IMG/VR virus record: IMGVR_UViG_3300045988_152494
Span: 1-39,821 of that record
DNA from: a virus
Lineage: Duplodnaviria > Heunggongvirae > Uroviricota > Caudoviricetes
Direction: 5' to 3' (one strand)
Length of the DNA: 39,821 bases
Position numbers: made by a program
Shown here: positions 1-3,000 of the stretch, one piece after another
How positions within the stretch are numbered: position 1 is the first letter of the stretch
Layout of the letters: each line of letters starts with the position of its first letter

Positions 1-3000
1 TTCGCTGAAAGTGGAATGTATCCATGGAGAACACTTTATCAGCCGGGAAATAATGCGGGCAACGGTGTTTAATTATATCGAATGTGATTACAATCGGTGG
101 CGGCGGCACAGTTGGTGTGGCGGCCTCAGTCCGGAACAATTTGAAAACAAGAACCTCGCTTAGGCCTGTGTCCATATTACGTGGGTAGGATCAGCTTTGG
201 GTTCACCGGCAATCAGAGACACATCCACGGTCTGACATTTCGTGGCGGCACTGATGCTTTTCACCACGGCCCGCCCAATCAGCCCGAGGAGTTGTCGCTG
301 TATGGTTTCAATCGCCCTCATCAGAACGGGTCCTCCTGTACTCTGGCTTTTTTCTTTTTCAGCGCGCCGGGATCTTCGGGTTCAGGCAGATAAGCATCAG
401 GCGGGCCGACACGGATTTCCGTCAGGGTGCCGTTCTGGTCCTGAGTAAACGTGACTTCCGAAACAAGCAGTTCGGTATTGTCGAAACCACAGACCGGATC
501 AAAGACAATCACCCGCTGGTTGGGCTGCCACAGCGTACCGTTACCCTGTCGCCAGCCCTGCACCACATAGGTGGTTTCATCCGTCCGCGCCGCCCGTTGT
601 CGGGCTTCAAAGTCAGCACGCGCAATACAGCCTGCCCCCGTGGCCTGCCCTGTCTGCCTGATATACATCGGACGGTAACGGGCAATAAATGCGTCCTCTG
701 TGCGGGCCCGCAGCACGGTGGTGGTGGCCTCACCAAAATCATCGTCGTTTCCGGCACGCTGCCCCGCCACCTGATAAACTGAAAACCGCTCCCGGATACT
801 CTTCTCCGTATCACAGGAAAGGATGTTTTCCCCAAGTACCAGCGCGGTATGTGCCCGCGTTGAGCCAATACCGCCAATCACCAGCCTGCCGTGCGGGTCG
901 TCATAAGCCAGCGCCTGCTGCTGACCGAGTATTTTGTTGATTACCTCAATCACCGTTTCACCGTGATCAGGCTGGACATCAGGAATAACACCCGACGGCG
1001 CACCGCTGTTCACCACCTCAATGCCGAAAGGCGCAGCAAGCGCCTGCGCAATCTGTACCAGCGATCGTCCGTTAAACTGTGTCGGTTCGGCTGCACAGTC
1101 AATCAGGTCAGCGGTCAGACTGCGTCCGGCAATACCGGTGCTGACCGAACGGGCATCGTAACGAACGGGCGTCGCCTCCACCCAGCCGGTGATCACCAGC
1201 TCATCACCAATCAGCACCTCCACTTTTGAACCGTTTTTAATGCGCGGCTGAAGCGTGGTGATACCCTCATCTCCCGGCCACTGGCGGGTGATCTCCACAC
1301 TGAAATCCCGCGCCAGTCGTTCAACACCGGCACCGATGCGCACCGATGTCCAGCCATTCCACTCCCGGCCATTTACCCGTAGCGTGACGTTATCGTTCAT
1401 TGCACTGGCACCTTCAGAGGGATCACCGGCACAAAGCCGGGATGCGTAATGGCATTACGCCGGATAATGTCCGCGTCACGCGCCGCGTTATCAAACCAGG
1501 TCGCCGCCAGCACCAGCGCGGGTAAAACCTCATCCGGTGTGCGCTGAATGATCCGTGCAGACTGTTCAAGGCGCGTGTTGATATCCGCATTCAGATCTGC
1601 TTTCACCCGGCGCAGCGCCAGAAACAGCGCATCGCTGGTTGTACGGGACAACTCCTTATCAATTGCCGTATTCAGTGTGTCGCGAATGTCAGTCAGTTCT
1701 TCCCACGTCGGCAGGTCAACCGTGTTTTTCACCGCCGGTGCATTGTTCAGTGCCGGATGCGTGACGGAAGGCCAGCCAGTGCTCTGCGCGGGTGTTGTTG
1801 CCTGCCCCACTGCGGAATTCTGCATCACCGCGGAAGTTGTTGGCGCAGGCAATCGGGTGACGGCATACGCCGCTTCGCTGATTGCGGTCGTACGAAGGGT
1901 GCTGGCAACCACGTTACGCTGCTGCGTAGCCGTGGCGGTGGTTTTACTGTCCGTTTTCCAGACGCCGCGCGGTTGCAGATCGCTGCCGAGGCTGACACCG
2001 GAAAGCGTTTTGATCATGGTGACCAGGTCGCTGGCGTTACCATAAAGGCGCTTCCCGGTACGCCACATTTTCTGCACCTGCTCAACGAAATTTTTGCCTG
2101 ACGATGGCGGCGGCAGAAGTACCGAGATATCCCCCTGCAACAGTCTGGCGGCATCCGATACGGCAGAATCCACCTCTTTCATCGCATCAGAAACATACCC
2201 AAGCATTGTGCTGGCATTACCGACGACGTCGTTCTGCACAAAATCCGCCACGCCATCGATACTGAAACCACTGAAACTGTCACTGATGCAGTCATCCAGT
2301 GCAGAACAGGATGACATCAGCGTCTGCGCCGTCGCCGCACCTGATGTGGGGTAAGAGAGTTCTCCCGCTTCGACAAACTTCAGGTCAAAGCGGACAATAC
2401 GCCCTTCACTCTTCGATGTGCTGACCCGAACCTCTCCGTCAACACAGACTTTCAGCTCACCGTAAGTCGGATGGACAAGCGTGCCGGGACCGGGTTTATT
2501 CAGCGCGTCAATCAGGCGATCGCGCTGGTCAAAGCAGTCATCTCCCACCACATAAGCCGTGATGGACGGGCGGAAAGTGATTTTCCCCAGGTCTTCGGTA
2601 TAGGGTTTGTCGCGGTTCGGGTATTCGTGCGTTTCCACACGACGACCGGTTCCCGCACTTTCTTCTTCAACCTTAAACGGCACACCGCGAAATGACGCGT
2701 CCTGAAGTCTGTCTTTCCACGTCATATATACTCCGAAAATTAAAAAGCCACCTATTAGAAGGTGGCCTTGTAATGAATTTTATTAATTAGCGAGTCAGAA
2801 ACAACGAATCTTTATACTTTTGCTGTTGTTCATTTAAATACTTAGCTGTTTCATCGCTGGCAAATGGAAATATTACCGTATTTTTAGGCATGGTAATTTC
2901 TTTTTTGTCCAGCGTCAGAGTAAACATAGGAACATACTGAGCAGAGTAACGCACCGCAGAAACGAGCTCTAGTTTAGACTCTTCAATAACACTTAAATTA

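Follow-up and report, generated by a model that had tools for sequence, protein, structure and literature searches.

What does an insertion sequence (IS) at the very edge of a contig tell about the phage tail genes beside it: that one of them has been disrupted, that those beyond it have been deleted, or that the assembly ended in a repeat? The question was raised by the IMG/VR record IMGVR_UViG_3300045988_152494, a metagenome contig of 39,821 bp, the whole of which was analysed and is called the window below. Its left end lies in a copy of IS3 and its right end in a Tn3-family resolvase gene, and it carries a lambdoid prophage that combines an HK97-type head and a Mu-type contractile tail with early genes of the lambda type. 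Based on the comparisons presented here, it is very probable that a copy of IS3 transposed into codon 43 of gene V, encoding the central spike of the baseplate, in an otherwise complete SfV-like lambdoid prophage located at thrW, and the insertion would deprive this prophage of a functional spike. The features at the left end of the window are the following:

1..193, plus strand: right-hand 193 bp of IS3; the contig starts within the element, and the segment is identical to the end of the complete IS3 in the related contig L011
2..163, plus strand: 3' end of IS3 orfB (InsF-type transposase), the last 53 codons and a TAG stop codon, by translation (orfB residues at 2..160, stop at 161-163)
about 155-193, plus strand: right terminal inverted repeat of IS3, ending ...GGGTAGGATCA at 193 (repeats compared with those of L011)
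160..321, minus strand: open reading frame (ORF) for a fusion of 53 amino acids, 43 derived from V and 10 from IS3 (DPTHVIWTQA), followed by a stop, by translation
194..321, minus strand: 5' remnant of gene V (Mu gp45 / P2 gpV type), 128 nucleotides, codons 1-42⅔ of 182, 100% identical to intact V genes
321..1400, minus strand: intact baseplate hub gene (Mu gp44 / P2 gpD type), 359 amino acids, with GpP-like and Gp44-like domains and 98.3% identity over its full length to a relative
1397..2725, minus strand: intact tube-initiator or 'DNA circularization' gene (Mu gp43 type), 442 amino acids, PF07157, full-length match

The element at positions 1-193 is a canonical IS3. Its length, its orfA/orfB layout and its complete transposase were read from L011, a near-identical contig of the isolate assembly GCA_013360045.1, as the window itself carries the final 193 bp only. 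Window positions 1-193 were identical to the right end of the L011 element, which continues for another 1,065 bp upstream to make a complete IS3 of 1,258 bp; a body of IS3 behind the junction, which a first-pass annotation of the window had suggested looking for, was in this way found. The inverted repeats of the L011 element, TGATCTTACCCAGCAATAGTGGACACGCGGC and TGATCCTACCCACGTAATATGGACACAGGCC (opening TGATCTTACCC... and TGATCCTACCC..., respectively), are canonical, beginning with TG and ending with CA, and between them lie an orfA of 99 amino acids and an orfB in the -1 frame, with an A-AAA-G (AAAAG) slip site at element position 328. The called product of 387 amino acids matched HTH_Tnp_1, HTH_21, rve, rve_3 and rve_2 in a profile search, and the 53 orfB residues in the window are the exact C-terminus of this transposase with its DDE (rve) domain. 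Between the orfB stop codon and base 193 the sequence passes through ...GGCCTGTGTCCATATTACGTGGGTAGGATCA. The same inverted repeats, orfA/orfB arrangement, slip site and rve domains are found in IS3 of Escherichia coli (IS3 group; insE/insF of K-12), and the IS3 end in the window was 99.5% identical to the copy in L002, for which the RefSeq label is 'IS3-like element IS3 family transposase, programmed frameshift'. Identity to annotated IS3 copies was 99.5-100%; the element itself shows no difference from them, and the insertion site alone is distinct.

The interrupted gene opens on the minus strand with MRAIETIQRQLLGL..., and its ATG (319-321) shares bases with the stop codon of the hub gene upstream. 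The V-derived portion of the fusion ORF translates as MRAIETIQRQLLGLIGRAVVKSISAATKCQTVDVSLIAGEPKA and runs on into DPTHVIWTQA before the stop at 160. In relatives, intact V comprises 549 nucleotides (182 amino acids), is annotated as 'phage baseplate assembly protein V' and matches PF06890 (Phage_Mu_Gp45), and positions 194-330 of the window were 100% identical to such intact genes (H42/H43). The V remnant alone covered positions 1-31 of 68 in the profile, corresponding to the N-terminal domain, at 22.2 bits against a PF06890 cutoff of 24.1. V was 182 amino acids long in 11 related loci, as opposed to a stub of 53 amino acids in L011 and in L020, a metagenome scaffold described below; the truncated gene has lost 140 of its 182 residues. 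Like Mu gp45 and P2 gpV, the intact allele belongs to PF06890 and stands directly after a gp44-type hub gene and before homologues of gp46, gp47 and gp48. The upstream half of the gene order gp43-gp44-gp45-gp46-gp47-gp48-fibre is contained in the window, and the downstream half was seen in relatives only. With 43 of 182 residues left, the V of the window differs from both Mu gp45 and P2 gpV, and by its predicted product it is a pseudogene remnant of the Phage_Mu_Gp45 family and not a functional member.

The point of insertion could be fixed to the base pair. Aligned with the empty site (in the intact prophage of L001), homology ended at the last base of the IS3 repeat, giving an exact breakpoint at 193/194. 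The tail module was uninterrupted in 1,084 records (1,076 genomes) out of 5,426 complete E. coli genomes, counted where at least 80% of a 2.8-kb query was covered, and among the matches listed the alignments of the intact module started at base 194, with one record bearing IS200C starting at 192. A chance resemblance can thus be set aside. The first-pass annotation had read positions 2..160 as the C-terminal 53 residues of an IS3-family OrfB, with the element ending in GGATCA at 193, and had described a minus-strand baseplate gene cut exactly at that junction. Translation and the match to L011 bear out the former, and the empty-site alignment supports the latter and identifies the gene as V. 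The gene start it placed at 311 and the roughly 39 codons it counted needed correction, to an ATG at 319-321 and to 128 nucleotides, or 42⅔ codons, respectively.

Insertion of IS3 into codon 43 of V would leave a stub of 53 amino acids and no functional spike. In phage Mu, gp45 is the trimeric central spike of the baseplate, built of an OB-fold, a beta-helix and an apex domain, and it closes the centre of the baseplate in concert with hub gp44 and the terminal part of the tape-measure protein (PMC11915804). Since the stub is predicted to be without most of the OB-fold and all of the beta-helix and apex, this prophage copy of V would not be expected to yield a functional spike. Because 140 of the 182 spike residues are lost, a defect in tail assembly or infectivity is expected; that the prophage would be unable to form functional tails on its own is a sound inference. 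IS3, which lies antisense to the late operon, splits V at codon 43. The 1.26 kb of foreign DNA thus placed between the hub gene and the genes that follow would weaken expression of the wedge and fibre genes past it, provided that these are still present, so that the insertion is probably polar on them. No observation contradicts the insertion itself. Two considerations weigh against the wider interpretation: the spike could be provided in trans by another V-type gene of the host, and the left flank of IS3 lies on no contig at hand, which bears on whether the transposition was 'simple'.

Intactness of the remainder of the prophage was assessed by translating the 47 annotated genes of VTB97448v, the closest complete relative, and aligning them back to the window. 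Other than V, all 46 matching genes were essentially full length, with 90-100% identity and no internal stop (a few terminal residues were unaligned in two of the 46). V is the only visible lesion from integrase to hub. The corresponding regions are:

3409..15195, minus strand: rest of the late operon (tape measure, chaperone, tube, sheath, terminator, head-tail connectors, capsid, protease, portal and terminase genes), intact, 95-100% identical to VTB97448v and stop-free, with lengths matching those in intact loci
15324..33337, no single strand: lysis, Q, replication, immunity, recombination, excisionase and integrase genes, intact by comparison with the relative
32222..33337: integrase gene
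33337..33428, minus strand: integrase-proximal attachment (att) site, the 3' half of thrW (tRNA-Thr) fused to sequence of the neighbouring island, with a 64-bp repeat in common with the far end of the intact L001 prophage

From terminase to hub (about 15 kb), nucleotide identity was about 97% to the Shigella phages SfII, SfI, SfIV and SfV (96.8-97.6% for the structural module of SfV, SfII and SfI) and to E. coli phage vB_EcoM-689R6; all of these share the HK97-type head, the Mu-type tail and integration at thrW. Unlike in the Sf phages, V is interrupted in the window and the early region is a different lambdoid mosaic. A Shigella genome, IS-rich and home to Sf phages, was considered as a possible source of the window and would leave the conclusion unchanged. 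In Sf phages the O-antigen modification genes are located past the fibre genes. None (gtr/oac) was visible on the 39,821-bp contig, which ends before the fibre genes, and E. coli relatives carry Pin, GIY-YIG and AraC-family genes past their fibre genes, at the position of the Sf cassette. In the relative VTB97448v, thrW is complete beside the integrase gene; the att site of the window scored 19.1 bits with a tRNA model, which is below the threshold, and ARAGORN called no tRNA there.

The tail module had been described in the first-pass annotation as ending abruptly. It does so in that V is truncated by IS3, but the end of the module stems mainly from the contig stopping in a multicopy repeat. 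The 2.8-kb query had a median of 3 matching places per genome, a much wider spread than that of the phage module, and the extra matches per genome are presumably IS3 copies. L011 and L020 came to light through exact matches to the hub and tape-measure proteins; L011 stops exactly at the outer end of IS3 and L020 stops within it, and every longer related contig has an intact V. Since IS3 is multicopy and short-read assemblers break at such places, contigs end inside it, and the abrupt end of the module is largely due to the assembly having broken at a repeat. The region past V spans about 8 kb in intact relatives and holds gp46, gp47/J and gp48, then an invertible segment of fibre and chaperone genes with Pin, and lastly a GIY-YIG gene, the gene of an AraC-family regulator and the distal att repeat. 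With a repeat at the contig edge, no statement that the missing wedge and fibre genes were deleted or displaced is warranted. Their displacement or deletion, which the first-pass annotation had put forward, does not follow from the sequence, and simple insertion is at least as likely. Prophage-completeness tools would call the contig truncated, in part for the technical reason of a break in a repeat, and where a contig stops in an IS, genes 'missing' at that edge are not to be taken as deleted.

Among near-identical prophages (L003-L006, L013-L016), the fibre-tip and chaperone segment beside Pin, about 3.7-5.9 kb downstream of the hub gene, was seen in both orientations, joining either a Collar-domain or a Gp53-like C-terminus to the constant N-terminus of the fibre, a pattern that fits what would be an active invertible switch of host range.

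What lies on the far side of the element could be a simple IS3 insertion, with gp46, gp47, gp48 and the fibre genes just past the IS, and this arrangement is considered reasonably probable. Transposition of IS3 generates a target duplication of 3 bp, and comparison with the empty site in L001 predicts the following feature, if transposition was simple:

194..196, no strand: GCT, predicted 3-bp target duplication

The predicted left junction would then consist of the V remainder ...GTTCAACCCCGGCT followed by the left end of IS3, TGATCTTACCCAG..., with the synthetic form ...GGTTCAAGATGTTCAACCCCGGCT directly joined to TGATCTTACCCAGCAATAGTGG and GCT duplicated. A search for this junction (V remainder, 0-8 bp, left end of IS3) gave no match in JGI metagenome or IMG/VR viral contigs, where the positive control failed too: the known right junction was found neither in these two collections nor in species-representative genomes, which makes the negative results for the left junction uninformative. 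After a simple insertion, a TAA in the left end of IS3 would close the V frame, so any called 3' remnant of V must use an internal start. Nine predicted remnants with such starts (69-119 amino acids, from the commonest allele) were absent from a collection of about 15 billion proteins. Members of the V cluster with odd lengths were considered as the missing half of V and rejected as unrelated truncations or fusions.

The competing explanation that holds up best is that IS3 marks the edge of a larger event, in which an adjacent deletion or recombination between two IS3 copies removed or relocated 421 nucleotides of V and about 8 kb beyond it. Deletions of prophages bounded by IS elements are common in E. 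coli, and when the 39.8-kb window was searched for DNA of V, gp46, gp47, gp48, the fibre or pin that might have been displaced, the single match was the 64-bp att repeat; the genes downstream of V are nowhere else on the contig. The 5' stub of V is on record from four contigs, yet none of the nine predicted 3' remnants is, which is weak evidence for a deletion; a comparable remnant of another disrupted copy (P0005) has been recorded, so such remnants can be called. The weight of this negative is reduced by one allele having been used and by gene callers possibly skipping such fragments, and the DNA searches for the left junction add nothing, given their failed positive control. Moreover, no decay is visible in the other prophage genes, and the junction coincides with a clean end of the IS, which is what a fresh simple transposition would produce. 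A larger event is regarded as quite possible, though short of probable; if it took place, a deletion including the distal att site would lock the prophage in the chromosome.

An extension of this explanation is put forward only tentatively and is on balance rather unlikely. It takes IS3 as the scar of a deletion or rearrangement in which the C-terminus of the spike was lost along with the genes for wedge, fibre and invertase and with the distal att site, leaving the prophage permanently immobilised, with its host-beneficial cargo (iss, SIR2/PDC-S25) and its complete set of head, lysis and replication genes kept under selection. If true, the immobilisation would represent an early and datable step of prophage domestication in a lineage that has been sampled at least three times.

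A different explanation leaves the insertion as it is and concerns its outcome: the prophage would be genetically defective but not dead, able, once induced, to excise, replicate and package its DNA, and a related prophage with a Mu-type tail in the same cell would rescue it, either by providing spike protein or through recombination. No damage is visible in the genes for integrase, excisionase, replication, Q, lysis, head and terminase, and the tail module is widespread (about 1,080 of 5,426 complete E. coli genomes). In E. coli O157 Sakai, many genetically defective prophages are inducible and released as particulate DNA, and some are transferred (PMC2669165). Given this precedent and the intact excision, head and packaging genes in the window, 'defective' need not mean inert, and the view of the first-pass annotation that the prophage cannot build tails leaves complementation by, or recombination with, sister prophages out of account. 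Such a rescue assumes, however, a second compatible V gene in the source genome, and the distal att site, on which competence for excision depends, would lie past the contig edge; we consider rescue improbable.

Finally, the junction itself might have been a chimera, with an IS3 read-through joined to phage DNA in a short-read metagenome contig that has repeats at its ends, but this is extremely improbable and was rejected, as an identical junction is present in the independent isolate assembly L011 and in the ENA scaffold L020, and as the breakpoint falls on the final base of the IS3 inverted repeat, as true transposition predicts. L011 aligned with window positions 1..11400 with 2 mismatches in 11,400 bp, extending 1,065 bp further upstream, and L020 (39,681 bp, labelled SAMN06350063) was identical to positions 139..15241 (15,103 bp, 0 mismatches). 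The exact fusion protein of 53 amino acids is on record from JGI/IMG and ENA in four contigs, the longest of which has the size of the window (39,821 bp); the JGI and ENA contigs possibly derive from the same sample, the isolate L011 being separate. The IS3/V junction was found in none of the 5,426 complete E. coli genomes, and it was absent from a plasmid collection in which related prophage modules were present, all aligned from base 194. The insertion site is new and private to one lineage. The intactness of the 46 other genes, together with the 0-2 mismatches among the three junction-bearing contigs, points to a recent event.

Accepting IS3 transposition into V, the prophage would be at an early stage of decay. 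The IS-disrupted prophages of O157 Sakai (Sp1-Sp18) likewise carry genetic defects, and several of them are still inducible and transferable (PMC2669165); unlike these, the prophage described here has one visible lesion with the remainder pristine, and it is known from its sequence alone. It represents a clean and recent case of prophage decay started by an IS, in which one essential-looking tail gene was struck and 46 genes are perfect. IS3, the SfV-like phage group and the insertion of IS elements into morphogenesis genes of prophages are all already known, and the insertion site alone is new; outside annotation the case matters little, being an ordinary form of prophage decay. In other E. 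coli strains, an IS66-family element was located in the fibre and chaperone region of the same module (L012, CP035817.1, positions 18688-20931) and IS200C in the stretch from gp43 to V (H33, NZ_CP034738.1), showing that IS insertions recur in this tail module. For the host, the cargo of the prophage (iss and a candidate defence gene of the SIR2 type) will probably persist whether the phage is viable or not.

The serum-survival lipoprotein gene of the iss/bor type is located at 16197-16487 (plus strand), between an HNH endonuclease gene and the lysis genes, and is 100% identical to the Iss of a relative. The candidate defence gene (25967-27574, plus strand) encodes a SIR2_2 protein of 535 amino acids with a full-length match to the PADLOC candidate defence family PDC-S25 (E 1e-235); it lies between a cI-like repressor gene and kil/gam/bet/exo, which is the slot of rexAB in lambda, and is also present in VTB97448v. 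Within the tail operon, an ORF of 176 amino acids with a hydrophobic N-terminus (2787-3317, minus strand), without a Pfam or PADLOC match, is found between the tape-measure gene and gp43, in an island of 33-36% guanine-plus-cytosine flanked by neighbours of 55-60%. It occurs in many relatives (L001, L003 and others) and is absent from VTB97448v, and it looks like a moron. Three further ORFs, of 181, 114 and 250 amino acids (20352-20897 and 21037-21381 on the minus strand, 30360-31112 on the plus strand), are located in the nin and recombination regions. They had no Pfam match and no counterpart in the closest annotated relative, two of them were negative in PADLOC, the 114-amino-acid ORF having been outside that scan, and they are mosaic cargo.

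Beyond the prophage, the hybrid att site (33337-33470) is directly followed by a second integrase gene (33462-34565), which indicates two elements in tandem at thrW. E. coli LR-31 has the same island without the prophage, with a 'tRNA-Ser' of 112 nucleotides annotated in RefSeq at the corresponding position. The remaining sequence (34575-39821) encodes a protein of 296 amino acids without a family match, a complete Tn3-family transposase (36179-39157, minus strand) and a resolvase cut by the contig end. It is 100% identical to the chromosomal island of E. coli LR-31, where an IS5 has inserted in between and the cargo of the transposon comprises OsmC, TetR and oxidoreductase genes.

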